DNA of 64,000 nucleotides from an uncultured Bacteroidales bacterium (GTDB lineage Bacteria > Bacteroidota > Bacteroidia > Bacteroidales > GCA-2748055), in assembly GCA_963771005.1 (NCBI GenBank), contig CAVYRO010000008.1, forward strand, positions 197,029-261,028. The letters are read 5' to 3'. Below are positions 6,180 to 25,393 of the stretch, one piece after another. The position numbers were made by a program, and so were the translations under genes. Numbering within the stretch: position 1 is the stretch's first letter; each line of letters starts with the position of its first letter. The notes under the pieces are model-generated. The model was given only the letters and a program-made list of their open reading frames with translations, made no database searches and was not told where the DNA came from.

Positions 6180-6869
6180 TCATCCATTCTCTTTTATAGC
6201 TCTATTTATCAATTTTGAAATCTTTCTCATCTTTGATTTTCGTCCTTTAATCAACGGTGTATCGCCCTGTTTTCCAATCAAAACGACAAAATATTCGCGA
6301 TAAAATAATCCATAAATGCCAAATAATAATAAAAAGATTCCAATAAAAAATGTTATTGTTATTATCCCGATAATAATCATCACAATACCGATAAAAACAA
6401 AGCTAGAGTTGTCATCCTTTCTTATTGTTGAATTATCAAAGTCAGTTAATTCATAACTTCTCCCACCACAGTTTACATATAATCCATTTAGTACTAAATC
6501 CTTGCTCGTATAAAATATTTTTTTCCGTTTATTCTTCTCTTTTTGTTTTTTTTCTTTTTCCTTTCGTTCAAGTTCATTCAATAAATCATTAACTGAAGAA
6601 TTTCTATAACCACTTTGATTATAGCTCGAACTTGAATTTGAGGAAAAGTAATCTGATGAATTAAATTTTGAATCAAATTGTGCTCTCTTATTATCATCTA
6701 TCAGAATGTCATAAGCTTCCTTAATTTCCTTAAATCGATCTTCAAAGAATTTATCACTATTTTGTTTATCGGGATGAAATTTTGTAGCATAAATTCTATA
6801 TGCTTTTTTAATATCATCCTTTGAGCATTCTGGTAATAATCCAAGTATTTGATAATAATTTTTCAGCAT
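6180..6869 (-). CDS. J-domain (DnaJ-like) protein with C-terminal transmembrane segments
   Basis: N-terminus NYYQILGLLPECSKDDIKKAYRIYATKFHPDKQ carries the J-domain HPD motif. There is a Lys/Glu-rich linker and C-terminal hydrophobic stretches (FVFIGIVMIIIGIITITFFIGIFLLLFGIYGLF). Confidence 0.7.
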   Translation of the reverse strand: MLKNYYQILGLLPECSKDDIKKAYRIYATKFHPDKQNSDKFFEDRFKEIKEAYDILIDDNKRAQFDSKFNSSDYFSSNSSSSYNQSGYRNSSVNDLLNELERKEKEKKQKEKNKRKKIFYTSKDLVLNGLYVNCGGRSYELTDFDNSTIRKDDNSSFVFIGIVMIIIGIITITFFIGIFLLLFGIYGLFYREYFVVLIGKQGDTPLIKGRKSKMRKISKLINRAIKENG

Positions 6870-7417: not shown

Positions 7418-7750
7418 CTATTCCATCAGTCCCTTTACTTCAAGGTAAAGTGGTGACAACTCTTTTTTTATGATTGCCCAAATCATCGAAGAGTCTACTG
7501 CATCGTAAGCATGTATGATACGATTTCGAAATCCAACAATTTTCCGGGCGTTGAATAGACTTATTTCAGGATGAATCAGGTCGAATTTGTTTACAGCTTC
7601 TCCGATTATTCCTAATTGTCTTTCAACGGCACTTTGAGTTTTCAGATCTTTTACATAATCTGTAAATGAGGAAATGTTGGATGTGAAGTCCTCAATTAAT
7701 TCAATAGCATGAATGATATCATCCAGGTATTTTAACCCCTTTTCCGTCAT
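7418..7750 (-). CDS. hepT: HEPN-domain toxin (DUF86/HepT family) of a HEPN-MNT toxin-antitoxin pair
   Basis: 110-aa ORF with the Rx4-6H HEPN motif (FRNRIIHAYD). It overlaps the 3' end of the upstream nucleotidyltransferase gene. Confidence 0.8.
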   Translation of the reverse strand: MTEKGLKYLDDIIHAIELIEDFTSNISSFTDYVKDLKTQSAVERQLGIIGEAVNKFDLIHPEISLFNARKIVGFRNRIIHAYDAVDSSMIWAIIKKELSPLYLEVKGLME

Positions 7751-8054
7751 AGATTAAAACTTTAGATGAATCAATGCTTTTTCTAAGATATGGGTTTCGA
7801 ATGGATGAATCAGTCAATAAATCGACCTTGGTATGAAAAAACAGTTCAAATGTGTCCCACAAAGAAATTAATTTCTCACCTCTTTCGATTGGATCAGAAG
7901 CGTCAATTTCCACAAGCAAATCAATATCACTTTTTTCTTTATCGAATTTATCAGTCGTCGATGAACCAAAAGCATACAAGTATTTAACATTATGAATTTT
8001 ACACAAATTCAAGAAGTTAATTCTGTCTTTTAATATCTTTTCTCGAATAACCAT
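7719..8054 (-). CDS. mntA: Minimal nucleotidyltransferase (MNT) antitoxin
   Basis: Start taken at ATG 8054-8052 (MVIREKILKD...). The NTase signature is YAFGSSTTDKFDKEKSDIDLLV (GS ... DxD). Confidence 0.75.
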   Translation of the reverse strand: MVIREKILKDRINFLNLCKIHNVKYLYAFGSSTTDKFDKEKSDIDLLVEIDASDPIERGEKLISLWDTFELFFHTKVDLLTDSSIRNPYLRKSIDSSKVLIYDGKGVKIPG

Positions 8055-8119
8055 AAAGCAAAGATAACTGATTTTAAGCAATTGTCAATTTCGTTTATAG
8101 TTTGTTGGTTCTCGGCTGG

Positions 8120-8253
8120 TTGCTAACGGTCGCGTGTATGAGTAGTGGCGGACTTCGAAGCACTTTCCAATCAAGATACACAGAATTTGATGCGAGGCAG
8201 AACACTCGAATACGCTACACCCCCCGCCATTACTTATACACGATGTTGGCGGT
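8120..8253 (-). repeat. attC-like recombination site 7
   Basis: TTGCTAAC (8120-8127), GGTCGC, GTGTATGAGTAGTGGCGG ... CCGCCATTACTTATACAC, GAT, GTTGGCGGT (8245-8253). It overlaps the last 8 codons of the methyltransferase ORF. Confidence 0.8.
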
Positions 8254-9132
8254 AGTTTTGTTTTTTATTAATTTGTATCTTATTGGATTCCAGTCGTTAT
8301 TGGCAGGTTTGTCTAATTTGAAATTGAAAAATAATATCTCGTTACCTTTTCTAATTTTATAAGCAGTATGATTAAATGAATACTCTTTGTTCTCGTATTC
8401 TTTATATAACTTTTTTATTTCAGGAACATTATCGTATGATACAATCCAATTAATCTCTTTTATACTTTTAATCTTTTCGCTTACAATTCTGTGATTTTCA
8501 TCACTATAATGATTCATATATAAAGTACTAGCCTTATGATAGTAAGGAGGGTCAAAATATAAAATGACATTTGAATTGTCAGTTTCCATTTCAATTTTGT
8601 CTATTAATTTTAATGCGTCTTTTTTATATAGTTTTATATCTTTCTTTCGAGAAGCAATTTTTCTAATTCTTTGCTTAATTTCTTCTTTGTTAAATCTACA
8701 GTCGATATTATAATCGCTTTTTTGCTCATATCCACCAATCGGCCCACCATTAATGATACCTGAATGATTTGTTCTATTTAAAAACAATGTAGAGAATCCT
8801 AACTCCAATAAACCAACTTTTTCTTTATAGCTTTGAACCTCTTTTAGCTTAAACCAATTTTCAATAGTAACTTCTGTTTTATCAATAAGTTCGCATAATT
8901 CTTCGCTCTTATTTAAAACAGAATACCAGAAAGCATAAATAGAACGGTCTTTATCATTTATAATCACTTTTTTTACAAAACCTTCAAATAGCAAGAACAA
9001 TGCAACAGATGCACCACCTGCATATGGTTCAACATATAAACCATTAATATTCCTGTCTATGCAAATTTTTGCAATAAATGCAGAGAGTTTGTTTTTCCCC
9101 CCTGGGTATCTAAGTGGCGAATAAAAAATCAT
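8230..9132 (-). CDS. Dam-family (D12 class) N6-adenine DNA methyltransferase
   Basis: 300-aa ORF with N-terminal PLRYPGGK, EPYAGGASV (SAM binding) and catalytic DPPY (ILYFDPPYYH). Confidence 0.85.
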   Translation of the reverse strand: MIFYSPLRYPGGKNKLSAFIAKICIDRNINGLYVEPYAGGASVALFLLFEGFVKKVIINDKDRSIYAFWYSVLNKSEELCELIDKTEVTIENWFKLKEVQSYKEKVGLLELGFSTLFLNRTNHSGIINGGPIGGYEQKSDYNIDCRFNKEEIKQRIRKIASRKKDIKLYKKDALKLIDKIEMETDNSNVILYFDPPYYHKASTLYMNHYSDENHRIVSEKIKSIKEINWIVSYDNVPEIKKLYKEYENKEYSFNHTAYKIRKGNEILFFNFKLDKPANNDWNPIRYKLIKNKTTANIVYK

Positions 9133-10514
9133 TTTCTTTTAAAATAATATTCAAGTATCTCTCCAATAATGAAAGAGTTTTTTAAAATTCCATCTTTAGC
9201 CACAGTAATGTTCCCATGTGCATACTTTGCAAGCATACCTTCAAGATTATTACCACCATCTAACCAATCAGTTGTCAAAGATAAATAGTTAACTGAGTCT
9301 TTTTCCAAACTCATTTCTTTTTTGGCAATCTTCAGAAAATCATTGTATAGTTGGTCTTTTTTTGATTTGTCGGAGTCACTTTCGTCAAAATACACCCTTG
9401 CGGCTACTTCGGTTATTAATCTCAAGGACATCCCAATTATTGGCAAAACTGTAGAATCAAATTCGTTTTTTTCATAAATGTTCAATATTGCACGATAAAG
9501 GTCATTGACTTTCCCTGCTTTTAGAGCCAAGGATTTGCCAAATAATGTATTGTTTTCTTTAGAAGTTGGAGTTTTTCTAGGAGGTAAAGTAATTGGAGTC
9601 TGTTCGGCTTTCTTTGTTCCCAATTTAACTGTTTCATTGCCAAATATGTCAGTCTTTTTATTTTTCTCTATATCGCTATTTACTTTAGCTACATTTTCAG
9701 ATTTTACACTTTCTAAATAACTTTTTATCTCAGGATTTTTGTTTAGTTCCCTTGTATCAACCGTATTGCCTTCAAAATCCTTCTTTTTTAAAACATTATG
9801 AATGATGACTTTCAGTTTATCAGGAAAGGTTTTATCTGTATAAGTTAACTCTCCATTTTCATCTGTGCTTAATCCAAATGTTTCCTTTGCAGGGCCAGTT
9901 GCTATAAACCTATAAAAAGTTGTAACATATCCTTGTCCAAGTACTTCATTAATTATTTCATTTGGTAAATCTAGTTTTCTAACAAATTCAGTAATCGCAA
10001 TCTTAATTTTAGTGTTCTGACTTTCAATACCTCTACGTTTTGAATAATTTATTTTTTCAGGTTCAAGCCATCCCACTTGATTGTTTCCTTTTGCGTGTTT
10101 CCTGTCAATATAGCGATAACACTGGTCTTTGTCTTCTGATACAAGACAATCAAGCAAAAAATTAGTGTCAATATTTATCGTTGATTTTTTATTTATTAGT
10201 GAAGTGTAGAACTTTTTATCAATATCAATAACCAACTCAGGATTTGATAATAATTTATATCCAGCAAGCCTTCTATTGCCTTCTAATACAATTAATTTAT
10301 CTGTTGAATCCCATACAACAACTTTTTCCAAATGTGGTAAGTCAATATCATTGACAATTTCGTCAACAAACTCTTTAAGCTTAAAGTTAGGTTTTGATAA
10401 AAAGTATTTAATAAGTTCTTTTTCGTCAGAATTATAATACTGGTCTGGAAATCGAGCATTCTCATCCCAAAGGAAAAGTTTTTCAATCGGTACTTTTTTC
10501 TCTGTAAAATTCAT
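9129..10514 (-). CDS. ParB/sulfiredoxin-fold N-terminal domain protein with a large uncharacterised C-terminal region
   Basis: 461-aa ORF. The N-terminal segment LIVLEGNRRLAGYKLL resembles the ParB-like nuclease-domain GxxR box. There is a 4-nt start/stop overlap with the methyltransferase gene. Confidence 0.55.
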   Translation of the reverse strand: MNFTEKKVPIEKLFLWDENARFPDQYYNSDEKELIKYFLSKPNFKLKEFVDEIVNDIDLPHLEKVVVWDSTDKLIVLEGNRRLAGYKLLSNPELVIDIDKKFYTSLINKKSTINIDTNFLLDCLVSEDKDQCYRYIDRKHAKGNNQVGWLEPEKINYSKRRGIESQNTKIKIAITEFVRKLDLPNEIINEVLGQGYVTTFYRFIATGPAKETFGLSTDENGELTYTDKTFPDKLKVIIHNVLKKKDFEGNTVDTRELNKNPEIKSYLESVKSENVAKVNSDIEKNKKTDIFGNETVKLGTKKAEQTPITLPPRKTPTSKENNTLFGKSLALKAGKVNDLYRAILNIYEKNEFDSTVLPIIGMSLRLITEVAARVYFDESDSDKSKKDQLYNDFLKIAKKEMSLEKDSVNYLSLTTDWLDGGNNLEGMLAKYAHGNITVAKDGILKNSFIIGEILEYYFKRK

Positions 10515-10583
10515 AATATTTCTATTTATAGAGTTCTTTTTGTCTAGTTAATATATTTAAAAAGAAACTTGTATTGACACCAG

Positions 10584-11351
10584 TTATTCTTTATTTTTAA
10601 CATAAATATGCTTAATATGTGTATTTTCTACTTCTTTCTCTTCTATATCAAAGTGAACATTCAAAGATTTAATTAGTGGAGTAAGTTTCGGGAAACCATA
10701 ATTACGAGAATCAAAATCAGGTTTCTTTTTCATAAGTAGCCCTCCAACTTCAGCAAGAAATGCCCATCCATTATCATCAGCCAAATCACCAATTGTCCCT
10801 TTTAATAACTTAATTAATTCATCATCAATTGTATCAATATCTATAGTTGTTGTTGTAACAGGAATACGAGATTGATTAGTTACAATACTTTCTGTTGTTT
10901 TTATTTCCGATATTCCAATAATTTCAATATAAATAAATTTGTCACATGCAACTATAAAAGGATTTGGAGTCTTTTTTTCACCAATCCCAACAACTAACAT
11001 TCCAGACTCCCTTAATCTAATTGCCAATCTTGTAAAATCACTATCGCTTGAAACAAGACAAAATCCGTCAACTTTCTGGCTATGCAATATATCCATTGCA
11101 TCAATAATCATAGCTGAATCTGTTGCGTTTTTTCCTGTTGTATAACTGTATTGTTGAATTGGTGTTATTGCGTGTTCTAATAAAGCTGGCTTCCATCCTG
11201 ATACAGTTGGTTTTGTCCAGTCTCCATAGATTCTCTTAATAGTTGGAATTCCAAGTTTTGCAATTTCATCTAGCATCCCCTTAATGTTTGAATAAGGAAT
11301 ATTATCTGCATCAATTAATACTGCTAATTTTAAATCATCTTTTTGTCTCAT
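10584..11351 (-). CDS. NYN-domain (PIN-like RNase) protein with C-terminal OST-HTH/LOTUS domain
   Basis: 255-aa ORF. LAVLIDADNIP...GKNATDSAMIIDAMDIL...FCLVSSDSDFTRLAIRLRESG is typical of the NYN fold. The C-terminal GWAFLAEVGGLLMKKKPDFDSRNYGFPKLTPLIKSL is LOTUS-like. Confidence 0.75.
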   Translation of the reverse strand: MRQKDDLKLAVLIDADNIPYSNIKGMLDEIAKLGIPTIKRIYGDWTKPTVSGWKPALLEHAITPIQQYSYTTGKNATDSAMIIDAMDILHSQKVDGFCLVSSDSDFTRLAIRLRESGMLVVGIGEKKTPNPFIVACDKFIYIEIIGISEIKTTESIVTNQSRIPVTTTTIDIDTIDDELIKLLKGTIGDLADDNGWAFLAEVGGLLMKKKPDFDSRNYGFPKLTPLIKSLNVHFDIEEKEVENTHIKHIYVKNKE

Positions 11352-11370
11352 GGTTGTACTTTTTTAAATT

Positions 11371-11506
11371 ACCGCCAACGGTTGGTGTATGAGGCGTTGG
11401 GCATTTCAACGCACTTCACTGTCAAACCGCTGATATGTTTATAAAATGTACTCATGTTTCAATTAACCACATGCTGCCCAATGACTTATACACATTGTTG
11501 TGCGGT
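11371..11506 (-). repeat. attC-like recombination site 8
   Basis: ACCGCCAAC (11371-11379), GGTTG, GTGTATGAGGCGTTGGGCA ... TGCCCAATGACTTATACAC, ATT, GTTGTGCGGT (11497-11506). Confidence 0.8.
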
Positions 11507-11631
11507 CGTACTTTTTCTTCAGTCAGGGTGGGCAAAGGCATACTCTTTGACAAGTTTTGGTCGTGGGGTTGACTTTTTGCGCGACTTGGCAATGTGTATG
11601 GCTTTAGCGAGGGCATTTCTATTTCTCCGAT

Positions 11632-13479
11632 TTATGGATTTAAAATGTCATATAAAATATCACCGGCTTTCGTGAGATTTCTCAACAAGTCATCTATTGT
11701 TATTTCTGCAACTCCTCTGTCGTTATAGGTCACATTTAGTCCAATAATTGCTTTATCAATTGTAAAAGGACTTTCCTTTATTTTAGTTAATCTATCACCA
11801 CCAGGATATGCTTCAGGGGGTACTCCTGTCGGTTTGGCAAACTGAACTCCTTCTCGTGTCCAGTCTTTAAAATGTATTGTAACCGGACTTTTTGTATTTG
11901 TGCCGTTATTAGTTACAGAGTAAATATTCTTTGCAATTTCGATTTTTGCTTGGTAATTAATCGCAGGTAAATTCAAATCAAACATGCTTCCTTTTGCAAC
12001 AAGTAATGTCCTCTCAGGTAGCGTAATATTTTTTAAGGCATCAATAACTTTAAAAGCAGCTAGAAGGTCATTTTTGTATATCGGACTTTCCAGGTCGTTG
12101 TGCGACATCGGATTAAAAAGAATGCTTTTGTATAAATACAAACTTTCAATTAAAATCATAGGCGGTTCAATTCCTAAATCGTCATAATATCGTTTAAGGT
12201 TGTCTATCAGCGTTTCAAGATTTGGTGGTTTTACTAAGCCTTTTAACCCTTCACCGACAGAATAGGTTGCCAACAATTTTTCGTGAAATAAATTTTCACA
12301 TTCTTTTCGCAAAGCATTAGCGCAAGCAGGGAAATCATAAACATTAAAGTAGGCTTTTGCTTTTTCAAAATTGGTCTTGTCTTGATGAATAATTTCGGGT
12401 CCTTCAGTTCCTTTGTAAAACTCAACAAATTTCCAGTCCCCAAGATTTAACTTCGCAACTTCATACCAGTGGCGGTCATAGGTTGTAATAAAAACCTGAA
12501 AATCTTTAAATACTTTATCTGCTTCGGCAACTTCTTTTTCTTGAAGCAATTGTAATAATTTCAACCTGTTTTCATTATCCAGACCGATTAAAATATCATC
12601 TAAGAATAAAGGTTTTATCTTCCTTGAAAAAGGACTTTGTTTAACAATCGCACCTAAGAAAATACTTATGGCAATAGCTGAAAGCTTTGCTTCATTTAAA
12701 ACAAACTGAGGATTATGGGCATCTAAATAAATTCCAGCACTTTCAACCAAAAGCAAAATCTTACTTTCAGTGATATTACCCCATTGATTTGTTGTTATTG
12801 TTCTACGTTGGAACTCAATTTTCAAGTCAGGGATTAGTTTTTCTAAAATTTTATTTACTGTTGGGGCTAAATAGTCAGGATTCCCGGTTAAAAATAATTT
12901 GTTAATCGCATTGTTAAATGCAATCGCTTTTTGTTCTACCGAAGCTTTCTTTTGCCGGGCAAAATAAAATTCATGACCACTGCCGAAAGGCTTATTACTT
13001 TCTTCTGCTACATCTGTCCAAAGTTTACCTAATTCAATGCCACCTGTTATAGTTTGAGATTTGAAATGTTTTAGTACACCATTTATTACAAGGTCGAAAA
13101 CATTGATTTGTTTACCAATTTTAATGTTGTGAACTGACAGCAAGTGTTTGTAGGTTATAAAACTCTTTAATCGGTTTGCATCTGTAATTGCTGGTGTTGC
13201 AGTAGTTTTTGTTGTATCGTTTAAGGTAAATTTTGCACCACCTTCAAATTCTACTTCTATTGAACAATCAGTTCCACCGTCATTAAGAAATAAGTTACGA
13301 AGAGCTGACATATCTATGTTTTCAACACTGGATTGAAAGAAGTCTTTTAGTGCATAATAAAACGAGCTTTTACCGCTTCCGTTTTCTCCATACATGAAAA
13401 CATTTTTACCACCAATTGGAATTTTCTCTTCCTTGGTAAATGCTTTATATTTATCAATGGTTACATTTTGGATTCTCAT
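11632..13479 (-). CDS. ABC/SMC-type (RecF-like) ATPase
   Basis: 615-aa intact ORF with Walker A GENGSGKSS near the N-terminus and Walker B/D-loop LFLDDILIGLD. Its ATG overlaps the methyltransferase stop (ATGA at 13476-13479). Confidence 0.7.
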   Translation of the reverse strand: MRIQNVTIDKYKAFTKEEKIPIGGKNVFMYGENGSGKSSFYYALKDFFQSSVENIDMSALRNLFLNDGGTDCSIEVEFEGGAKFTLNDTTKTTATPAITDANRLKSFITYKHLLSVHNIKIGKQINVFDLVINGVLKHFKSQTITGGIELGKLWTDVAEESNKPFGSGHEFYFARQKKASVEQKAIAFNNAINKLFLTGNPDYLAPTVNKILEKLIPDLKIEFQRRTITTNQWGNITESKILLLVESAGIYLDAHNPQFVLNEAKLSAIAISIFLGAIVKQSPFSRKIKPLFLDDILIGLDNENRLKLLQLLQEKEVAEADKVFKDFQVFITTYDRHWYEVAKLNLGDWKFVEFYKGTEGPEIIHQDKTNFEKAKAYFNVYDFPACANALRKECENLFHEKLLATYSVGEGLKGLVKPPNLETLIDNLKRYYDDLGIEPPMILIESLYLYKSILFNPMSHNDLESPIYKNDLLAAFKVIDALKNITLPERTLLVAKGSMFDLNLPAINYQAKIEIAKNIYSVTNNGTNTKSPVTIHFKDWTREGVQFAKPTGVPPEAYPGGDRLTKIKESPFTIDKAIIGLNVTYNDRGVAEITIDDLLRNLTKAGDILYDILNP

Positions 13480-16400
13480 TTTAAAGCTTCTTTTATTATT
13501 CTCACTTCTTCAATGCTGTCCAGAGTCTCAATGGCATATTTTACCGGGTGGTTGTCGTCATACAAACGTTCAAACTCACTTTGTACAATTGCCAATTTTT
13601 CTTCCGGACTCATGGTCTCATTTATTGGTTTTAGATTACCTAAGTGTTTGATTATTTCTTTATCAGCTGATTTGAGTTCTTTGGGGAAGTAAAGTTCATA
13701 AACTATTTCATTTATCAATTCAAAGAAAAACTGTTCATACAATTCATTTAATGAAAAGGAAAAAATGCAATACTGCCTAATGACTATTATTAAATTAGCA
13801 ATATCAGAATCATATGAAGGCAACGGAAAATTCCGAATATCAGTCACAAGAATTTTAGGAAAATCACCTTTTGTTGCTTTAGGTGAAGCATTAAAATGAT
13901 AGAAGGTTGCAATAGTTGAATTTAGAATTCCCCATAACCATTCAAGTGAATAACTGGTATTTTCCTTATTTATAATCGAAATAATTTGTGGGTCATTAAC
14001 CAGATGTTCTTCAACAATGCAGGCAATTATTGTTGGATTAGTAATTTCTCTAACTAAAACTCTCTTCCTATTAAAGTACCTTGGCTCGATATAGCCAGCA
14101 AGGTGTTTGCCATACCATATGTATGAATCAGCTTTCGAGTAACTGTATTTATTCAGGTTCCTACCTTGAATTTCTTGTTCATATTCTGATGATATTTTTT
14201 CAGTACTATGCCATTCTCTATTGTCAACAATAGAATTTCCATTTTCTTTTCCATAGGTTTTTATTAAATCACTCCTTCTGTATGGAATATAACCTTGCGA
14301 TATGTCAAACAAATTTTCAAGATTATTTCTTTTTTCTGTTATCCTCTTTATAGTTTCGACAGTAGTTGGGCTTAATTTAAATGCTAATCCCCAATTTTTA
14401 TTGAAAGATGTGATTTCTTCTTTTGAAATTTCTAATCTTGGTCTTGAAATTAATTCTATGAAACTATTTGCCTCATTGGTATTTCGATATCCAATACTAA
14501 TTGTTTCTTTAGTTAAACCTTTAGACCAATTGAAAATTGTATTTCTTACAACTGCACTCTCAAAAAACTTAAAGTTTGTACAATCCAAAATTTCATTTAC
14601 TGTCCACCTATCTAAAATCTTATTTCTATAATTTTCAGCAAATACATTAAACAATATGGAATTAGGAATTATAAAGGTATTGCATCCATTATTGTGTAAA
14701 AGCTTGAAAGAAAGTTCTATGAAAAAATAGTATATCTCATAATCAGGGACTTTTTCAAATTGCTTCAAAACTATCTTTCTGTAATCATCTTTTATTGATA
14801 CACCATATGGTGGATTTCCAATCACCACATCAAAACCGCCCTTTTCGTGCCAAACCTCTGAGAAATAGAGTTTGAAATCAAAGTCGATTTTATATCCTGC
14901 AAATTCTTCAATCTCATCTAATAGTTGTCTGATTTTCTTGTTTATCTGTAGGCGAAGTTCTTTCTTTTTAGTTTCATTTGTTTCATCATAAAAAAGTGGT
15001 TTTAATCTTTCTATTTCTTTTAGAAGTTCATCATTTGGTAAAACATCTGTTGGCTTACCAATTAATGAGTTGCCGCAAACAATTTTATAATCCAGATTTG
15101 GCAGGGTTTCAATGGGGTCAAGGTCATCTTCGTCGACCACAAGCGAAAGCCACAAACGCAAACGGGCAATATCAATTGCTGAAGCATCAATATCTACTCC
15201 GTAAATGCTTTCTTGAATAATATGGCGTTTTAATCGATAGATATAACGACTTTCGTTGATACTCTCGTGAAACTGAAAACCAAAGCCATCTAATTTTTTA
15301 TTCAAATAAGCATTGCTTAAATGCGGCATTAATACTAATTGTGCATTTACTAATTCATGTAACAAACCCACCGGAAAAGCCCCCGAGCCAATAGCAGGGT
15401 CGCAAATTCGTATTTCTGTTAATTTCCGGTCAATCAACTCTGCATTATTTCTAATGCTTTCAGGAATTTGGTATTTATAATCTTTGGTTTCTGTTCCTTT
15501 GTTTGCAACACGCTGGTCGTTTTCCAACGCAAAGTTTCCTTCTCGAATATAAACTTCTATGTCGTCTTTCTTAACTTTTTCTTCCAGTGCATTGTCCAAA
15601 TAATGTATCAGGCTTTCCTGGCACATATAATGCACAATTTCACGCGGAGTATAAAACGCGCCATTACCTTTTCGATCGTTTATCATCGAAAAGATTTTCA
15701 AAAACTTTTCCCAACATTTCCGGGTCAACAGCTACTTCTTTGTCCAGCGGCTCGTCTTCTTTTATGGTAAAGTTGTAGCGGTCAAAAACATCCAAAACTC
15801 CGGTTCCCTTATCTCCGGCTTTGTTTTTTTCTTCATTACTGAAATAGATTTTCGGGAATGGTAATGTTGGCAGTTTCCCAATCGTATTCTGCTTCAAACA
15901 ATCCTCCATTTAAAAATGGAATCCGGCAATCAAATCGTTTGTAATAAGAGTTTTCATTGTTCCGTTCTTTTGCCAATGCTTCGTAAAACAAGGGTTGCAG
16001 AATAATCTTTAAAGTAATTTTGGTTTTTTCTTTGAGCTTCTTCAAACAATTCCTGAATAAAACGTTTTTTTCCTTTTCCCCAATGTTCGTTTTGTGGTAC
16101 ACCCAGCCAGCCTTTTTTCTGCAAAAAATAGAGAAATACAATTTGCCCGAGTAGTTTTTTTGTAAATCGGGTGTTGTCAATATTCGCCTTTTCTAATTCG
16201 GATTGAATGTGCGTGTCGTTTTCAAAATGTTCGTACAGTTTAACATACAAATCTTTGTATTGACCGAAAAATTCATCGGTGACTTTTTCAATGCTAAAAG
16301 CATTTTCAATTTCTTCAATGGTAGGATTATTGCATATGTTTTGAAGTAATGGCAGAATTTGGTTTTTGCGTGTATGTGCTTTTTCATATTCACCCACCAG

Positions 16401-16867
16401 AAAGGAATACCTTTTTGCAGGTGTAAATTCTTTTCGGGTTTTTACCTTTTGTTTTTCTTCATCTAAGATACGACTGATGTTCGAGTTTAATGAACGAAAA
16501 ACGCCAGTCGGCTCCATCATCTTCTTTTGAATAAAAAGCAACAAGAGCATAATCTTTTTCAAATTTGCTCAGGTGTTTAATCACAAAATTTCGTAATGCG
16601 GTTCTGGCTCGTTCCAGTTTCGCACCGCTTTTCACTTCAACAATTAAAACGTCCAGCGCTTCGCCTTCCGGGTCAATGTACTTGCCAATTCGTTTGTAGG
16701 TGTTGATGTGTTCTTTGTGGTCGTCCCAAATATATTGTCCGCTGTAGACATTGCTTTTGGGTTCAATATCATTCAGCAAGTTTTTGACAAACAGTGTAAA
16801 CCGGCTTTCATCAAACCTTTACTTGAATGTTTCTTCGATTAAGTGATATGGCAGTATTTTTATCCAT
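13476..16867 (-). CDS. Large Eco57I/type IIG-like N6-adenine DNA methyltransferase; N-terminal third fragmented by frameshifts
   Basis: The intact 750-aa C-terminal ORF carries CDPAIGSGAFP (SAM motif I) and VVIGNPPYG (motif IV). The fragments 15664-15909, 15836-16180, 15954-16562 and 16459-16779 read as one continuous N-terminal region (e.g. QIVFLYFLQKKGWLG). The proposed ATG at 16867-16865 (MDKNTAISL...) comes from manual translation. Confidence 0.7.
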
Positions 16868-19800
16868 AATTATTTAATAAGGTATCCTGATAAAATGACT
16901 TCACGTTTTTGAAAAGCTTTTTTCGTGCTGTACTGTTTTCAATGGCAATTGCTCGAATGTGTTTTCTTAAAATATTGAGTGCTTCCAATGGGTCGATGGT
17001 TTTTTCCAATTCATTTTTAATGTCCCGGGCAGTGCGTTTTGCCATTGTACCCAGCTACTAAAATATTTTTCACACTTTCTAATAAATTCATCGTCCGAAT
17101 CGGTAAAGCTTTTGACAGTTTTTAAAGATTTATCTTTTAAGCGTTTTTCGATGTATTTTACATTTGAACGCCCGCCGGCGAGTTTTTTGCGGTTCATCGC
17201 CAATGGTGGTGTCCAACTCAAAGCGAGCCCTGTTTGTCTGTAAAAGATGGTAATAATCGTCAGGGATTTTTGCCCTTTTGGTTAAAGGTTTACATTCCAG
17301 ATTATAAACTGCATCAAAAAAAGTAATTTCATCTGAGCTGCCCTTTTTGTTGAGATAGAATTTTTTGAGTTTACCAATCCTGAAAAAAGTAAGTAGTTGA
17401 TTGGCTTCAATTTTTGACTTTTATAAATCCTGAACGGGCTTTTTTAGGTAGGTTTTTTATTTTTTGAAATAAATCAGGATTTTCATCTCTTATTTTTCGC
17501 ATCATTTCCAGATACTTCAATTCCGAATCGCCTTCTTCATCTTCTCCGGTGTAGGCCTTTTTGTTATTCAAGGTGTTAAACAATTCCTGACTTCCAATTT
17601 CTTCGCCATCGGTCAGGTATTTGGCATCTTCACCCAAAATATCATGAAACATCTGGATTTTATTGGTGATGTTCATTTCCAATCCAAGATGTGCATCCGA
17701 TTGTGTTGTTGGGAAGAAATTAAAAATATGCACATTTGTCAAATGCTGACTTCCCAAACGATTCACACGTCCGGCTCTTTGTAGCACTCTGGTTGGATTC
17801 CAGGGCAAATCGTAATTGATAACCACATTTGACCGATGAAGGTTAATTCCTTCAGCCAAAACATCGGTGGCAATCAGAATTCTCAAATCATTAACTTGTT
17901 CTTTTGGTTTTTCTATTTGGGTCGTAATTGGCTTGAATAATATCGCGTGAAACAGTGTGATTTGATGTTAGTTTCAAATCTGAGTGACGTCCGCCTTTAC
18001 TGGAATAAAACATTACCTATTTAGGAAATTCGTTTAGCAAAGCTTCATAAATGTAATCACCTGTTTCTTTTGATTCTGTGAAAATTACAAGCTTATTGTT
18101 CTATTCAAGTGATTTGGTTTTCTTTGATTCAAAAATGAACTGTTCAAGTTTCGGGTCTGAGTCAACAGTTCTGCCATAATTCTTTTACTTGTTTAAAACT
18201 TTTAAATCAAATTCAAGTTTTGTTTTAAAGTCTTTTTTAAAGTCTTTTGAATCATATTTGTTGGCTTTGTCTTCTTCAACCAATTCATCGAGTTTATCAA
18301 TGTCATCATTTCTCAAGCAGGTCGTAAACATCTACTTTTTTGCTGATATAAACTGTTCCAGAATCGAACATTGAGATAAAGTTTTCATAAGAAAGAATAA
18401 AACGGTCAACACTTTGCCGAAAAGCGTAAAAACTACTTTCCAAACGTTTAACAAGAATTCCTTTCATAAATCCTCCAACATTTCGCTGTTGTTGTTTTTC
18501 AAACTCACTTAGCTGCTTTATTTCCAATGTAAAAAAGCAACGGCGTGTATCTGGAATAGGTAAAGTGTGTAGGAGTTTTATCGTTTGCTTTAAAAGTGTT
18601 TTCAAATTCACCTTCGTATTCATATACAATTTTCTGCGGGTCTTTCACATTCAGGAAAAACCAAACCTTGTTTAAGAATATCGCCTTTAAAATAAGTAAC
18701 AACATCTGACCGTGTTCTTCGAACCATGACATATCTTAAAATGTTGTTTTTAATTTCGTTTGAAACTTCTTTAATGAGAATTTTATAAGCAGGGTCATCT
18801 TTTTCAACTTTCTTTAGCTTGGTTCTTAATGAATTAAAAAACTTTTCAAGATTTGGCACTCCGGGAATAGTTGACTGTTTTGGAGCCTGAAATAATTTAA
18901 GTTGTGCAAAAATATCATCAACCGTATTGTTTAAAGGAGTTGCAGTAACAAGAATTACTTTTTTGCCCCGGCAAATATCCAATAAGGTTGGCATATGATT
19001 GTGTGTTTTCATTTCTGAAACGGTGTGCTTCATCCACAACAATATAATCGTATCGTTCTAATCCTTTTTTAATGATGTGTTCCAGTTTACCAAGCGATTC
19101 AACTTCAAAACTTCGGATACCAAAATCAAATAAAGAATCTTTCCAGTAATCCTTTCAACACAGGAGGACAAACAACTAAAGTTCTGCCCTGAATTTGTTG
19201 AAGAAGTAAAGCTGTAATAAATGTTTTACCAAGACCAACAACATCAGCAAGAAAAACGCCATTGTATGCTTCCAGAATTTTCTTTGCCTGAATTGCAGCC
19301 TGACTTTGATATTTTAATTTCATAAATCCATCTGGCAGAAATGGGTCAAACTGGTCTTCCAGATTTATGTCTTCTTCCAAGTATTCATAAATTAATTTCA
19401 GATAAAATTCGTATGGAGTAATTTGATCATTTAACCATGTTTTTGTTGTAATTGTGTCAACAAAATCATCTGAAATATCAACAGATTCATTCCAAAGCTC
19501 ATTAAACTGGTTTTCTGCAAATTTAACATCTAATGTTTTCCTCAACTCAACATTAAATTCTCGGTTTGCCACAAAGCCAGATTCAGAAAAATTACTTGAA
19601 CCAGTAATTACAAAACCATAATCTCTGTCTTCAGGATGGAATCTGCCTATGTAAACTTTTGCATGAATATTTTTTGATGGATAGGCTCTTATTTCTAATT
19701 TTTTTCCATTTCCTCCAATTGCTTTATCATCTGCTGGATTTTTACATTCTTGTTGTAAAAATTCAATAAATTTCCGAATTCCAATTTCTAAGCTTGTTAT

Positions 19801-20143
19801 CATTTTCATCACTTGTTTCAATTTCAGTTTTCAGGTTTGCCTGAAATTGTTTTTTTGTTCTTTGATGCGATTCAAAATCAATCATTCCGATTTGCTCGTG
19901 ATATTGCAAAATATCATAAGAATCTCTGTCAACGCTTAAACCAACAAGTATTCTGACTTTTTCAACAGGTTCAAGTGATTCATACAATTGATAAAAACCA
20001 CTTGCCCTGAAATAACCAACAAGTACATCAAAAAGTTGAGTGTCTTTTAGTGTTGCTTTAAATCGATTTAATAAACTACTTCCATTTTCATTTGTGAAAA
20101 ATGTCAAGTCAGTTTGGTCAATATTATTTGTCTTCTTATCCAT
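16860..20143 (-). CDS. Phospholipase-D-like nuclease domain fused to SNF2-family helicase; heavily fragmented (8 or more frame breaks)
   Basis: 19763-20143 and 19126-19821 give the PLD region ([18 protein letters not shown]) and helicase motif I ([10 protein letters not shown]). 18620-19042 gives [11 protein letters not shown]. 17407-17886 gives helicase-C motifs ([31 protein letters not shown]). Short fragments continue to a stop at 16860. Confidence 0.7.
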
Positions 20144-20156
20144 TAAATTCAGTTAT

Positions 20157-20438
20157 TTACTCGATTGATTTAATTGTTTCTTGTAAACCAATCTTCAAAT
20201 ATTCCAACTCGCCCAGTTCTGTTAAAATCATTGATTTGATAAATTCAATTTGAATTTCCTTTTCCGGTTTGTCAAGTGTATCGGATAGGATTGGAATCAT
20301 TTCGGTCGTTGCACGTCTTTCATTGCGTTCAATCTTGCTTAACAATGAAGTATCAATGTCAAGTGCAGCAGCAACTTTTCTAAGGGGTAATTCTTTGTCT
20401 TCTCTTGCTTTCCGTAAGTATTCACCAAATGATTTCAT
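20157..20438 (-). CDS. XRE-family helix-turn-helix transcriptional regulator
   Basis: 93-aa ORF. FGEYLRKAREDKELPLRKVAAALDIDTSLLSKIERNERR is a canonical HTH_3-type segment. It is the first gene of the 9.1-kb cassette. Confidence 0.8.
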   Translation of the reverse strand: MKSFGEYLRKAREDKELPLRKVAAALDIDTSLLSKIERNERRATTEMIPILSDTLDKPEKEIQIEFIKSMILTELGELEYLKIGLQETIKSIE

Positions 20439-20603
20439 CTTGTCAATTTATTTTAGACGATTCTGTCCAAAAATACATCTTTTTTATTTTGTTTTTCCAT
20501 CAGCGGGTCGGAAAAGATTAAGCTCTTTTGGTTTTTTTAGGGTTGGCATTTTGTGTCGGCAAAAAACCAAATGTGCTTAATGTGCGTGGGGCTTTTTCAG
20601 TAT

Positions 20604-20741
20604 GCCGCACAACGTTTGACAATATGGCAAGTGGCGGTTTGCGGAGCGCGTCTGTATCCACCGTTGAAAAAGTTTGAAGCGGGCTACAATGCCCGAATTT
20701 ACTACTATCCCCGCCATTTGCTATATTGTGTGTTAGGGGGC
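20604..20741 (-). repeat. attC-like recombination site 9
   Basis: GCCGCACAAC (20604-20613), GTTTG, ACAATATGGCAAGTGGCGG ... CCGCCATTTGCTATATTGT, GT, GTTAGGGGGC (20732-20741). Confidence 0.8.
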
Positions 20742-20748
20742 GTTAATA

Positions 20749-21250
20749 TTATATTGTTGTCATTCTAAAATCTTTCCATCTTATGATTTCGGAATATGGA
20801 AATTCATTCTTTATGTGTTTTTTATATTTTGTCCTTGCTAACAGAAAAATTATTTGATTATCATCAATTTCAATATTTCTCTTGGCAATCTTATTTCTCA
20901 ATTTTGGAATATTAGAAATTAAATAATTCAAATTATTTTCATTTACTCCATTTTTTGAATTTCTATCTCTGATTTTTAATGGCTCATCGATTATATCAAT
21001 TAAGAAAATCCCCTTATCTCTGAAGTTCTATTAAAAACTTTTCATATTCAACCACATCTCTTGGTACGGTGTCAAAATAGTGATAAAAAATCGTTGCTGG
21101 TAAGCTGGTGTTTTCTTCCCTAATTCTGTTTTGAATAGTATCAGGTAAATAAAAATACTTTTTACCAGAAAAAGGAGGTGCTTCTCCAATTAGTAAAGTC
21201 TTAATTTTTAATGGTCTATATTTCTCGGAAATTTTAAAATAGTTTATCAT
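20749..21250 (-). CDS. Hypothetical protein, probably one gene split by a frameshift (track ORFs 21014-21250 and 20749-20931)
   Basis: The two short ORFs are adjacent and co-directional. The open frame of the second extends upstream almost to the stop of the first. No confident motif. Confidence 0.35.
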
Positions 21251-21681
21251 TTCACTATATCATATTGTTCGTAAAGTCCAATATTATCATACAAAGACAA
21301 TTTACCATTATTTTCAATTAAATAATAATCATTGTATCCATCCCCCATTAAGGCTTTGATAATAAATGTTTGTCTCCCAGATTTTGTCTTGGTATCTAAT
21401 TCCCACTTTTTACCAATCTTTAACTTCTCAATCTCCATCTCATTTATGTAGTAAACACCATTTTTTTTAAAAATTACAACCAAAACACCATCACCCTGAC
21501 TCCATTTGCCGAGAATATCAACAGATTTATTCTCTGCTAAAAATTTAATCATTAGTTTATCAGTTTTTGAATTATCAGTACTTGTATTTTTTTTTGTATC
21601 ATCATAATATGGAGCTGTCATTATAATTTCTAAATCAGGGTCAAAATGAGATGTAGCCCAAGCTCCTGAACCAACTTTCAT
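21247..21681 (-). CDS. Hypothetical protein
   Basis: 144-aa ORF with a 4-nt stop/start overlap with the next gene. Confidence 0.45.
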   Translation of the reverse strand: MKVGSGAWATSHFDPDLEIIMTAPYYDDTKKNTSTDNSKTDKLMIKFLAENKSVDILGKWSQGDGVLVVIFKKNGVYYINEMEIEKLKIGKKWELDTKTKSGRQTFIIKALMGDGYNDYYLIENNGKLSLYDNIGLYEQYDIVK

Positions 21682-21720
21682 TCCTGGTAGATAGTAGCAT
21701 ATAAATATCCTTTCATAATC

Positions 21721-22002
21721 CTAATTTAGTTCATTTTTTAGTTTTTTTGCCAATTTTTCAATTGAAGTTTTTTTAAACTCTTTATTTAATCGAACATCTA
21801 TACTTGCTTTAATTGAGGGAATAGATTCTTGTTTTATAATGGAATACTCATCAAAGATTTCATCATAATCAGTTTTATTAATATAATTATCAGATTGTTT
21901 ATCATCTCGATTTAGAACAAACTTCATCATTCCGAAAATGAAAATAACAACAACAATCCCTATTATAATTTCGAATTTTTTATCATTACTTTTTTTGTCC
22001 AT
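21721..22002 (-). CDS. Small membrane-anchored protein
   Basis: 93-aa ORF with a single N-terminal hydrophobic helix (FEIIIGIVVVIFIFGMMKFV). Confidence 0.45.
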   Translation of the reverse strand: MDKKSNDKKFEIIIGIVVVIFIFGMMKFVLNRDDKQSDNYINKTDYDEIFDEYSIIKQESIPSIKASIDVRLNKEFKKTSIEKLAKKLKNELN

Positions 22003-22055
22003 TTTTAATCTTATTTATCAGTTATATTGTCAACTGTCGGTTTGTTTGGTTTAAT

Positions 22056-22190
22056 GCCCCCTAACGGTGGCAATATGCAAAGTTTGGGATTACGGAGCGA
22101 TTCACTATCAAGCTACACGGCACTTGATGCGAGCCACAACCCTTGAATAACCTATTAAACCCCAATTTTGTATATTGCATGTTGTGTGCC
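22056..22190 (-). repeat. attC-like recombination site 10
   Basis: GCCCCCTAAC (22056-22065), GGTG, GCAATATGCAAAGTTTGGG ... CCCCAATTTTGTATATTGC, AT, GTTGTGTGCC (22181-22190). Confidence 0.8.
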
Positions 22191-22198
22191 GTAATTTT

Positions 22199-22534
22199 TT
22201 ATTTTTCTTTATTATTCATCAAATCTTTAGTATCGTTTATATATCTACGCTTCACATAAATCAATATTGACGGTCGAGTAGTACTCTCAGATATAATGCT
22301 GTTGTCATATCTAACTATTTCAACCTTATCAATCCAATCAGGATTAATCATTTTTAAAGTCAATGAATCAATTAGTAATTTATCCTTTTTTAAAACTAAT
22401 ACAAATTGGGCATTTTTATAATTAATATCCTTGCTTATGAAGGTTGAGCTACTTTTTGTTGTATCATTTTGAGCATGCAAGTTACTGCTGAAAAATATCA
22501 ACGAAGCAAATAAAAGTCTATATATTTTAATCAT
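22199..22534 (-). CDS. Small exported protein
   Basis: 111-aa ORF with signal-like N-terminus MIKIYRLLFASLIFFSSNLHAQ. Confidence 0.5.
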   Translation of the reverse strand: MIKIYRLLFASLIFFSSNLHAQNDTTKSSSTFISKDINYKNAQFVLVLKKDKLLIDSLTLKMINPDWIDKVEIVRYDNSIISESTTRPSILIYVKRRYINDTKDLMNNKEK

Positions 22535-22540
22535 GACAAA

Positions 22541-22939
22541 TCATTTTAATAAAAAATCAAATGTATCCTTTGTTACACTCTTAGTATACTGTCGGCTTTT
22601 GCCTTCTTTATCAATAAATCCAACAACTACAAAATCCTTAAATATCAAAAATCTAAAATCTTTACCAATTATTATCATATCAGATGGAGCATATGAAGCT
22701 GGTGAACTTTGCCAATCATCAGAGTTGTCAGTAAACCATTTTTTTAATTGGCTGTATTTGATCGAATTACAATCAATAATCCGATCTGTCGAATCACTTT
22801 TTAAAAAATATCCATCAGAATTAAATTTAAGTGTCAATCGCTGGTTGTTTTTAATTAATTCTGCAGTTTCAATCTTTACATTACATGAATTTAAAACAAT
22901 CAAAGAAATAAAACATATTATTATAGTAAATTGCTTCAT
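22541..22939 (-). CDS. Small lipoprotein
   Basis: Start taken at ATG 22939-22937 (MKQFTIIICFISLIVLNSCN, with a lipobox). The longer track ORF start lies inside the attC-like site. Confidence 0.5.
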   Translation of the reverse strand: MKQFTIIICFISLIVLNSCNVKIETAELIKNNQRLTLKFNSDGYFLKSDSTDRIIDCNSIKYSQLKKWFTDNSDDWQSSPASYAPSDMIIIGKDFRFLIFKDFVVVGFIDKEGKSRQYTKSVTKDTFDFLLK

Positions 22940-22957
22940 AAGTGCGGTTTTTATTAT

Positions 22958-23093
22958 GGCACACAACGTTTGATGGTATGGTGTCGTGCGGGATTACGAA
23001 GCGATTTCCTATCAGTTTACACCGACTTTTTTTACGAGCCACAAACGCTCGAAAACCTCTGAAACCCGCATGCACTATACCATGTGTTGGCGT
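22958..23093 (-). repeat. attC-like recombination site 11
   Basis: GGCACACAAC (22958-22967), GTTTG, ATGGTATGGTGTCGTGCGGG ... CCCGCATGCACTATACCAT, GT, GTTGGCGT (23086-23093). Confidence 0.8.
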
Positions 23094-23205
23094 TTCGTGC
23101 TTTGTTCCTGTCAGTCCGTGGGTTGGCAAGGCAAGCTCTTTGGCTGGTTTTGGAAGTGCATTGGCATATGAGACCAGACAATGTGCTTGACTTTTGTTGG
23201 ATGAA

Positions 23206-23575
23206 TCAATTAATATACATGAAAGATTGAGGAGGTGTCGCATTATAGTGTTCCTTTATACATAAAGCTTCATCATAAACCCTAGTCTCTTTAATTTTAA
23301 TGGCGTATCCTTTTTCTCTGCTTTTAAAATAGTTAAAGAAATACTTCTTATCGATTCCTGCAAATTCCTTAGTGGCATTCCATAAATCTGTTGGTTCTCC
23401 ACTTAATATTGATTCTATATCAAATTCTCCAATTACCTTCTGAACCTGAAGAAGAATATACAACCACTGTTTTAATATTGGGATTTTTAAATAATGACCT
23501 TCTGAATTCATATTTTTTTATCCCTGCGAATATTTTATCTGCAAATTCTGGTTTAATCGATAATAATACTTTCAT
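23206..23575 (-). CDS. ASCH-domain (PUA-like) protein, one frameshift
   Basis: Manual translation from ATG 23575-23573 gives MKVLLSIKPEFADKIFAGIKKYEFRRSLFKNPNIKTVVVYSSS. The track ORF then continues ...VQKVIGEFDIESILSGEPTDLW...GYAIKIKETRVYDE...PPQSFMY. The pattern is typical of small ASCH proteins. Confidence 0.6.
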
Positions 23576-23601
23576 CACTCTTTGTCTCCGTTATTATAGT
23601 T

Positions 23602-25067
23602 TTAAACTGTTCCTTCGTAATTTTCACGAATCCTCTTGGTGCTGATTCTGTAATCTTTAATAATCCCTAATTTAATTAATTGTTCAAGATTAATTCTTTT
23701 CGGAAATGAATAATTATAGAAAAAATTAACAATAAACGGTCTATTACGGGGATTAAAATTCCACCATTTTTTAAGCTCATCATTTGTAAAAATACTTCTC
23801 TTCCTACATTTTAAAATAAAATCGTTTTCGTCTTTTATGTCTGTGATTATGTTTTCAACAGTACCAATCGTCGAAATTACACTTTTATATTTACCACCTG
23901 TACGATAAAATATAATCAAATCTCCGGTTTTTAAGCCCTTTTCCCACGAGCGTGAAATGTATGCCTTCCTGATTGCATTTCTATGAAGCTCATTTTCGAC
24001 AAAATCCATTGGAGATTCTGTTGTTAAAATGGAGTCTGGTAATAATTCTGTATGATAATCGGGCCAAATTGGGCATAGGAAAATATTAGTATTACAAGAG
24101 ATATAAGGATATGTTAATTTTGGGTCAATTATATTGAATGCAGGTGAAAAATCCCTTGTGAGGACAATTTCTTCGCCACAACTTGATTTTTTCAGTTCCA
24201 TGTTCGGCAAACCCCCAAGTTTTAAGCATTTCAATTAATCTCTTCTGCTCTTCACGTTTATCAAATATAGTTACATAAATTTCATTGACTTTATTTACAA
24301 CTGCATTATCAAATATTATTTTTAAAAACCTTTCGCCTAATCGAACCCCATTACTCTCAACTTTAAATGTTCCAATTTTAAGTCTCTTTTTGGGTGTAAA
24401 GACAGGTGTAATATCCGAATAATTTTCATCTGTATTTTCAACTTTCACATATAGAAAAGAAAGAACATTTTCTTGGTTTTCTGTAATATATGCGGTTTCT
24501 TCAGATTTTTTATTAAACCAATTATCGAAACCAGGGTAATCCTCTCTGAAACTATCAAAAAAAGTATCTTTTAAGTTTACATTGCCAAATAATTTTTTTG
24601 ATACGCTCAGTACTTTATAATCAACTAAATGAGGATTTTCAGAAACAACTTTTTCTAAAAATGAATTGATGTTAAATACTTTCTCTGAAATGCCAAGCCT
24701 TTCGGCTTTTTTATGTATTTTTTTATCTTCTGTTACAAGTATGTCAGTTCGTCCACAAAATACTTCATTAAGAAGTTGTGTGTCATTTTTATCATTTTCA
24801 TTGTTATCCATCTCCTCCGATACATTTTTAACAGAATCGTCAAGTGGAGCAGTGGTTTGTAATTCGTTATAGCTTTTGAGTTTAATCTTTAAAGTCTCCA
24901 CGGCAGGTTTGTTGGAATTTTTATTTATTTCTTGATATAGTAATCGGATGTATACATTTTGTGTACTTAGCCTTATCCAACCATTTAAAAAGTATACCAA
25001 TATCTCGATTAACAACAGTACTTGTCTCACGGTGAATTATAATATTTGTATCAAGAAGTGCTTTCAT
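23602..25067 (-). CDS. Multidomain protein: N-terminal PIN-like segment, GNAT-like acetyltransferase segment, C-terminal PUA/ASCH-like segment; at least 2 frameshifts
   Basis: Manual translation from ATG 25067-25065 gives MKALLDTNIIIHRE... and later ILVTEDKKIHKKAERLG (PIN-like). The middle region has LKIGTFKV...GVRLGERFLKIIFDNAV...EIYVTIF (GNAT-like). The C-terminal ORF 23602-24234 has KTGDLIIFYRTGG...ISTIGTVENI (PUA-like). All domain calls come from motif resemblance only. Confidence 0.45.
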
Positions 25068-25386: not shown

Positions 25387-25393
25387 GCTATTT

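Follow-up and report, generated by a model that had tools for sequence, protein, structure and literature searches.

We analyzed a stretch of 64,000 nt from contig CAVYRO010000008.1 of an uncultured Bacteroidales bacterium (hereafter, the window), and in particular three consecutive genes near its left end (Table 1), which code for an adenine methyltransferase of the D12 class (protein B), a 461-aa protein (protein A) and a protein with NYN and LOTUS domains. A first-pass annotation, made from the nucleotide sequence, had placed these genes between positions 8254 and 11370; the open reading frames (ORFs) that it called were correct, but these limits clip 24 nt from the 3′ end of the methylase gene and overshoot the start of the NYN gene by 19 nt. 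The overlap of 4 nt that it described between the first two genes was also found: gene A ends in AAA AGA AAA TGA, and the ATG of the methylase (9132-9130) overlaps this stop codon to give ATGA.

Table 1. Features of the PD-λ-5 locus and the adjoining NYN/LOTUS gene (positions in the window)
Feature	Position	Strand	Evidence
PD-λ-5 B, D12-class (Dam-family) N6-adenine DNA methyltransferase, 300 aa	8230-9132	minus	PADLOC, Pfam, motifs
PD-λ-5 A, ParB/Srx-like protein, 461 aa	9129-10514	minus	PADLOC PD-Lambda-5_A
A residues 1-100, predicted ParB/sulfiredoxin-fold domain	10215-10514 (boundary approximate)	minus	Foldseek, hhalign, invariant residues
A residues 101-300, helical middle region	9615-10214 (boundary approximate)	minus	Foldseek, hhalign, invariant residues
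A residues 325-461, six-helix C-terminal domain ('var1'), candidate effector	9132-9542	minus	Model, invariant residues
NYN + OST-HTH/LOTUS protein, 255 aa	10584-11351	minus	Pfam
Two-gene module as mobile unit	8134-10521		blastn identity limits

Comparison with the PADLOC models indicates that genes A and B are an intact copy of PD-λ-5, and hence add a member to a system that is already known and has been validated experimentally. The methylase matched the PD-Lambda-5_B model (PDLC04018) with an E-value of 1.7e-111, over residues 3-281 of the 291-position model, and the 461-aa protein matched 23 PADLOC A models in all, among them PD-Lambda-5_A PDLC03998 (3.8e-33, residues 5-389) and PDLC04013 (2.1e-24, residues 1-446). 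The link to PD-λ-5 was made through these models and not through the Escherichia coli protein sequences themselves (RCQ13837/8). The pairing, which the first-pass annotation had treated as uncharacterized, is consequently that of a two-gene anti-phage system from a prophage of E. coli ECOR7, obtained by functional selection for phage resistance (Vassallo et al., 2022; PMC9519451). The supplementary table of that work labels it 'ParB/HEPN, methyltransferase', and the HHpred searches of its authors assigned residues 6-89 of A to ParBc (96.4%), with a weak match to DUF4145 of the HEPN clan (35.6%), and B to MethyltransfD12 (99.9%). The E. coli system acted on nine of the ten phages tested, reducing plating for most of them, and its cloning required a Δmrr host; protection was strongest against T-even phages, which carry modified DNA that is resistant to most classical restriction (PMC9519451).

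Phage resistance has been demonstrated only for the E. coli ECOR7 homolog, and for the copy in the window it is predicted. With a probability of about 0.72, we consider that positions 8134-10521 contain an intact PD-λ-5-type two-gene anti-phage module, similar to restriction-modification (RM) systems and located in an integrated island of low GC content. The pair should be labeled PD-λ-5 in the annotation, excluding the NYN/LOTUS gene. PD-λ-5 gives broad protection in E. coli, with no mechanism reported in the literature that we searched, and the remaining interest of the locus is in this mechanism and in the pattern of effector swapping described below.

The methylase is complete and contains a DPPY motif, as had been noted in the first reading of the sequence. 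It matched Pfam MethyltransfD12 (PF02086; 9.6e-18) over residues 9-247, with DPPY at residues 194-197 (positions 8542-8553) and EPYAGGAS as the S-adenosylmethionine motif; judging from this full-length match and the two motifs, the enzyme looks active. Its score against TIGR00571 ('dam') was 64 bits, under the cut-off of 114.85, so that it is not a Dam equivalog.

Homologs of A are abundant: a word-indexed search retrieved 459 of them, and the family comprises 3241 clusters at 50% identity with E<=1e-3, or 1419 with E<=1e-10. We examined the neighborhood of gene A in 80 loci, obtained from a scan of one genome per species, 78 of which have room for a downstream methylase gene. A homologous D12 methylase is encoded downstream of A, in the same strand and with A first, in 76 of the 78. 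The methylase gene is immediately adjacent in 68 loci (gap of -56 to +57 nt), the commonest spacing being the 4-nt overlap, and the eight non-adjacent cases are due to split A ORFs or, in three loci, to an additional intervening gene. In the latter (L032, 9388-10944; L042, 9350-10927; L061, 9394-10947), which belong to two Gammaproteobacteria and to Olleya, a gene for an ATPase of ~518 aa of the AAA_15/AAA_21 type sits between A and B, making a three-gene variant of PD-λ-5. One of the loci without methylase (L062) has an A gene that ends after 303 aa, with an apparent transposase gene beside it. No conserved family that could be a third component was found in the flanks of the 80 loci, the most frequent one being present in nine.

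The 80 loci are distributed among Bacteroidota, Patescibacteria, DPANN and Heimdall archaea, Gammaproteobacteria, Chloroflexota, Planctomycetota and others. Genes A and B are arranged likewise in a P2-like Vibrio phage, next to its integrase, and on a plasmid of Vibrio maritimus; in Vibrio, the NCBI pipeline PGAP names the products 'ParB/Srx family N-terminal domain-containing protein' and 'DNA adenine methylase'. The conserved linkage contradicts an orphan methylase, which the first-pass annotation had kept as an alternative, and, together with the support for a ParB fold (see below), it upholds the proposal of an RM-like defense module in which the methylase has the 461-aa protein as its dedicated partner.

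Blastn comparisons delimited the module precisely. A Prolixibacteraceae genome (L001) shows 95.4% nucleotide identity to the window exclusively over positions 8134-10521, and homology to four more distant copies (L002 to L005) has the same limits; in another one (L091) it covers 8146-10545. The edges of the module are 7 nt upstream of the start codon of A and ~96 nt downstream of the stop of the methylase. Additionally, a 99.9% identical contig from another sample (L090) diverges at position 8123, ~107 nt downstream of the methylase, into an IS21 element (IstB; L090 3416-5090), which occupies the place that in the window corresponds to an MNT/HepT pair. This pair (7418-8081), immediately downstream of the methylase, comprises a HepT-like HEPN RNase (110 aa) overlapping an MNT-type nucleotidyltransferase (120 aa), that is, a type VII toxin-antitoxin pair. 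DNA homology with the other copies of the module stops before the NYN/LOTUS gene; the methylase and the 461-aa gene are thus the only ones that travel as a unit, and the single cassette of three genes proposed in the first-pass annotation does not hold.

Searches of the 461-aa protein against Pfam, NCBIfam and PDB sequence profiles returned nothing except a coiled-coil artefact, and Pfam gave no match, including none to ParB_N above threshold, in 38 close relatives. The earlier statement that there is no recognizable restriction endonuclease is literally true of this copy, because A does not match any Pfam or NCBIfam family. A full-length AlphaFold model, based on the 38-sequence alignment, had a predicted local distance difference test score (pLDDT) of 82, with a disordered linker (residues 302-320) and a second stretch of low confidence (residues 403-421). 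The top 12 Foldseek hits of this model in PDB were all ParB, Noc, sulfiredoxin (Srx) or PadC, most of them with probability 0.9-1.0 (E 0.02-0.2), and those for the N-domain included 6sdk, 7bnk, 7ol9, 6ky4 and 6ryk (probability 0.9-1.0, E 0.02-0.14). The alignments to ParB and Noc span 236-297 columns, so that they reach past the N-domain.

The N-domain contains the sequences LWDENARF (NPR box) and EGNRR (GxxR box). The ParB-type box noticed in the first-pass annotation, LEGNRRLAGYKLL, is at residues 77-89, and 71 distinct relatives all keep its residues E78, G79, N80, R81 and R82; likewise, the N-terminal consensus of 111 diverse relatives, ENPR ... EGNRR, reproduces the two ParB boxes. Using hhalign, the profile of these 111 sequences aligned to a Spo0J alignment with an E-value of 0.0094 and the NPR and GxRR motifs in register, whereas the 38-sequence profile, compared with a Spo0J alignment of low diversity, gave no significant match (E 0.24). 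The Spo0J alignment also extends to the helix-turn-helix region, pairing LDLPNEI with LTLPENI. The residues invariant in 71 distinct full-length A proteins include W16, N19, R21, E63, E78-R82, Y86, K87, H140, W149, E153, R202, R255, R365 and H433. The UniRef name of a relative of 74% identity (P0024) is 'ParB/Sulfiredoxin d...'.

Together, the structural hits, the profile comparison and the published HHpred assignment support the ParB-type fold suggested for the N-terminus in the first-pass annotation, here as a predicted ParB/Srx fold. Residues 101-300 are helical in the model and are conserved along with the N-domain in all variants, and they are possibly the DNA-binding part. A is not a member of the partition ParB family: ParB_N did not match above threshold and its neighbors are not ParA. 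We did not use as proof of the ParB assignment a 'ParB/RepB/Spo0J family partition protein' from a Persicobacter plasmid (L082 1444-2547), whose own match to ParB_N has an E-value of 0.094. With hhalign, this plasmid protein matched the first 160 residues of PD-λ-5 A much more strongly (97%, E 3e-11), and its annotation as a partition protein may be wrong.

Modeled alone, residues 325-461 form a predicted six-helix bundle with a pLDDT of 90. In genome loci, the C-terminal ~140 residues of A occur as three helical sequence variants, found in 55, 14 (the type of the window) and 7 loci. Mutual identity among these variants is 14-21%, yet R365 and H433 are present in 71/71 distinct full-length proteins; R365 is part of an RxxxE motif, of which E369 is kept in 67 of the 71.

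Sequence comparisons also revealed a replacement of this domain. In nine of 98 diverse relatives (~9%), its place is taken by PF18742 (REase_DpnII-MboI), and the eight that we confirmed individually match this family at residues ~340-480, with E-values of 1e-28 to 1e-43 and a visible D...E-x-K motif. We looked up four of these DpnII-type paralogs and all have an adjacent DNA methylase gene: in three it follows and is of the D12 class, its product 35-39% identical to that of the window, and in the fourth (L088 617-3225) the paralog faces a convergent N6_N4 (beta-class) methylase, and therefore the methylase partner is exchangeable as well. A further relative (L089 1664-5157) has a weakly TIR-like C-terminus (E 0.003, below threshold) and is followed by a D12 methylase gene (product 43% identical to that of the window) and a TIR_2 gene; it may be a further effector variant.

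The C-terminus thus appears to be a swappable module, because relatives in which a DpnII/MboI domain replaces it are still beside a methylase. We did not find this replacement described in the literature that we searched. The overall pattern suggests a conserved sensor core with interchangeable C-terminal effectors, tied to a DNA methylase, and the swappable C-terminal domain, rather than the ParB-like domain, is likely the effector. PD-λ-5 A belongs to a large family, present in bacteria, candidate-phyla bacteria and archaea, in which the ParB-like core is conserved, a methylase partner is almost obligatory and the C-terminal module is replaceable, being in some cases a DpnII/MboI endonuclease.

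From these data we can outline how the module might work. B, as a Dam-family N6-methyladenine (m6A) methyltransferase, would mark host DNA at a short motif. A would be the restriction or sensor partner, its core binding DNA and reporting unmethylated (foreign) DNA, probably under nucleotide control, so that methylation would discriminate self from non-self. The NPR and GxRR boxes bind nucleoside triphosphates (NTP) in ParB, and the N-domain of A probably binds NTP because both boxes are intact. The C-terminal domain would execute the response, and the six-helix bundle with R365-x3-E369...H433 is most likely a metal-independent HEPN-like nuclease, with catalysis at R365, E369 and H433 and either DNA or RNA as the putative target; the DpnII/MboI paralogs argue for DNA in at least part of the family.

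Several observations weigh against considering the locus a functional module of this type. One truly solitary A gene, with no methylase gene nearby, was found among the 80 loci (L056), and the conserved DNA contains no promoter of the module's own, so that expression in the window is only predicted. The evidence for ParB is statistically moderate (Foldseek E 0.02-0.2, hhalign E 0.009, ParB_N under threshold). The C-terminal domain had no sequence match, with Pfam blank in the 38 close relatives, and the Foldseek searches against PDB and BFVD gave only hits with E above 1. Neither does A contain the canonical Rx4-6H motif of HEPN proteins, since R365 and H433 are 68 residues apart and the sequence around H433 is LAKYAHG; the putative catalytic role of the C-terminal domain is proposed from residue conservation and domain replacement. 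Finally, we found no mechanistic or biochemical data on PD-λ-5 in the literature searched, where later papers repeat the original description, and a simple model of cutting at unmethylated sites fails to explain why the best protection in E. coli is against T-even phages, which resist classical restriction.

As a tentative hypothesis, we propose that PD-λ-5 A represents a distinct class of restriction enzyme, with methylation-gated sensing by a ParB-type switch and a modular effector. The ParB/Srx nucleotide switch, possibly a CTP- or NTP-gated clamp, would scan for missing m6A and license interchangeable effectors: the helical fold with the R/E/H residues in its three variants, the DpnII/MboI PD-(D/E)xK domain and possibly TIR. 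If this were true, the helical domain of A would represent either a novel nuclease fold or a HEPN domain that has diverged extensively.

Vassallo et al. suggested another possibility, RM combined with abortive infection, in which a C-terminal HEPN RNase would degrade cellular RNA once A sensed that DNA was foreign or unmethylated, or that the methylase was being interfered with, and the cell would die or arrest with the phage DNA uncut. This could account for the stronger protection against T-even phages, and it agrees with the weak DUF4145 match published for the E. coli protein and with a DUF4145 match (E 0.004) in one of the 98 diverse relatives; in our reading of the alignments, the RxxxE helix of A resembles the first helix of DUF4145. 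The system may likewise tolerate effectors other than DNases, as suggested by L089, with its weakly TIR-like C-terminus and a TIR_2 gene next to that of the methylase. However, the missing Rx4-6H motif speaks against a HEPN domain, and the HEPN proteins retrieved by Foldseek with the C-terminus (1jog and 5yep; E 2-8, probability <=0.1) appeared amid globins and capsid proteins and are only noise, so that our searches do not confirm the published 'HEPN' label. Moreover, the sole alternative effector identified with confidence at the C-terminus of A is a DNA endonuclease domain. An RNase acting by abortive infection is hence possible, although doubtful.

The first-pass annotation proposed the ParB-like protein as either the nuclease or the sensor partner of the methylase. 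The partnership is sustained by the linkage, but it is unlikely that the ParB/Srx N-domain is itself the nuclease, as in Osa or the nicking enzymes of the RK2 ParB type, with a C-terminus that only regulates or binds the methylase. NTP-modulated DNA nicking is documented in the ParB/Srx superfamily in the works that PMC12839542 cites for it (Johnson, 1999; Maindola, 2014), and conservation in A is highest in the N-domain and middle region, where most of its invariant polar residues lie. Conversely, paralogs append a dedicated PD-(D/E)xK endonuclease to the same core, which would be redundant if the core cut DNA, and the retention of the R/E/H set among C-terminal variants with 14-21% identity is typical of an active site.

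A role outside of defense, in which the methylase would shield the mobile element from restriction by the host and the ParB-like protein would be a partner for DNA targeting or regulation, appears very improbable. It would fit the presence of ParB-like/methylase combinations on phages and plasmids, as well as the strong avoidance of GATC in the island, which indicates past restriction pressure. Over positions 1-28000 there are 28 GATC sites versus 84.6 expected, and the observed/expected ratio of 0.33 is the lowest of the 16 four-base palindromes; no site is found in 7893-15673, and four in 7893-25590, whereas the ratio in the adjoining high-GC DNA is 1.16. However, the E. coli homolog was selected for phage resistance and cuts the plating of most phages tested, in paralogs the core of A is joined to a restriction endonuclease domain, and the module is often located among other defense and toxin-antitoxin genes. 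We also considered palindrome avoidance as an indicator of the specificity of the methylase, and discarded it because the GATC ratio in the pooled flanks of the 80 related loci was 0.70, no more depleted than GGCC or CTAG.

The NYN/LOTUS gene was correctly identified in the first reading of the sequence (Pfam NYN, 3.3e-38; OST-HTH/LOTUS, 1.4e-16), where its product was also suggested as an additional effector. No NYN homolog was present within 8 kb of the A-B pairs in any of the 80 related loci and, reciprocally, neither A nor B was found within 5 kb of NYN/LOTUS homologs in 80 metagenomic loci (the best 80 of at least 590 matching metagenomic stretches, with 60-81% identity), in which there was no conserved partner either. 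Given this reciprocal lack of co-occurrence and the DNA breakpoints, which fall short of the NYN gene, the unit consists of two genes and the NYN/LOTUS gene is an independent neighbor. Its inclusion as a functional component of a three-gene cassette is hardly tenable: it is in the same strand with only 69 nt from its stop to the start of A, and transcription of A and B in the window may come from the NYN gene or this spacer, since the conserved DNA of the module lacks an upstream promoter region, but its product has no match in PADLOC-DB and the gene has neither A-B nor any other conserved neighbor. The NYN/LOTUS protein is very widespread and well conserved, and among phage proteins it matches a family without assigned function (phrog_37744, 8.6e-67).

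The PD-λ-5 module is contained in a region with a GC content of ~32%, from the left edge of the window to ~28 kb, which then changes to ~50%; a tyrosine integrase gene (26266-27855, minus strand) is at this boundary, and there is no tRNA gene in the whole window. It has the appearance of an integrated island, 28 kb or more in length and continuing beyond the left edge of the window, the alternative being a chimeric assembly. Upstream of the NYN/LOTUS gene (11632-15728), the start of a gene for a 615-aa SMC_N/AAA_15-type ATPase overlaps by 4 nt the stop of the gene for a 750-aa Eco57I/TaqI_C methylase. The methylase gene has a TTG start, and its product gave alignments only to DrmMI/PglX and, among type IIG enzymes, to their methylase half. 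A tblastn search upstream for the other, N-terminal, half of this Eco57I-like methylase found nothing. These two products show weak matches to MADS components (mad3 in PADLOC, MAD2 in NCBIfam) and may be a separate defense pair, uncharacterized or truncated. Positions 15836-19821 contain short minus-strand ORFs with TTG starts and fragments of Helicase_C (17407-17886), SNF2-related (18620-19042) and PLDc_2 (19126-19821) domains. They look like a frameshifted helicase/PLD set, DISARM-like with the DrmMI-like methylase, or alternatively they reflect indel errors in a long-read assembly. Also encoded in the island (6180-6869) is a DnaJ (J-domain) protein whose linker is rich in Ser and Asn and which has transmembrane segments at its C-terminus.

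The module shows partial similarity to several known systems. The resemblance to PrrC and RloC, which accompany type I RM systems, is conceptual and holds only if the HEPN reading is right, in that a methylation system would be combined with a HEPN-type nuclease; the proteins and architecture are different, and no type I Hsd genes belong to the module. A shares with the CTP-dependent ParB clamps Spo0J and Noc the predicted fold of the N-domain, the NPR and GxRR boxes and probably a helical DNA-binding region after them, but it has no ParA partner, no C-terminal dimerization domain of ParB and no ParB_N match above threshold, and the ENLQRE box of ParB is not conserved in the alignment. GmrSD and SspE (ParB-like DUF262 NTPase plus HNH-type DUF1524) also combine an N-domain of the ParB/Srx superfamily and a C-terminal effector in a single polypeptide with a role in defense. 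However, GmrSD and SspE depend on DNA modification (type IV) or sense phosphorothioates, and neither is accompanied by a cognate methylase, in contrast to the pair of the window; Pfam found neither DUF262 nor DUF1524 in A, and a match to one or the other appeared in one of its 98 relatives (E 0.005).

The DpnII/MboI type II RM systems, with the D12 methylase DpnM and a PD-(D/E)xK endonuclease, similarly include a Dam-family D12 methylase beside a partner gene, and paralogs of A end in PF18742. The classical enzymes lack the ParB-like core of ~300 residues, whereas A in the window has no endonuclease domain recognizable with Pfam, NCBIfam or PDB. As for PD-λ-5 itself, the E. coli prototype is in a coliphage-type prophage whereas the pair of the window is in a low-GC island of an apparent Bacteroidota genome, and the best A model covers only residues 5-389, so that the C-terminus in the window may be a different variant from that of the prototype. 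Both systems nevertheless consist of two co-directional genes on a mobile element, coding for an A protein with a ParB-like N-terminus followed by the D12 methylase B.

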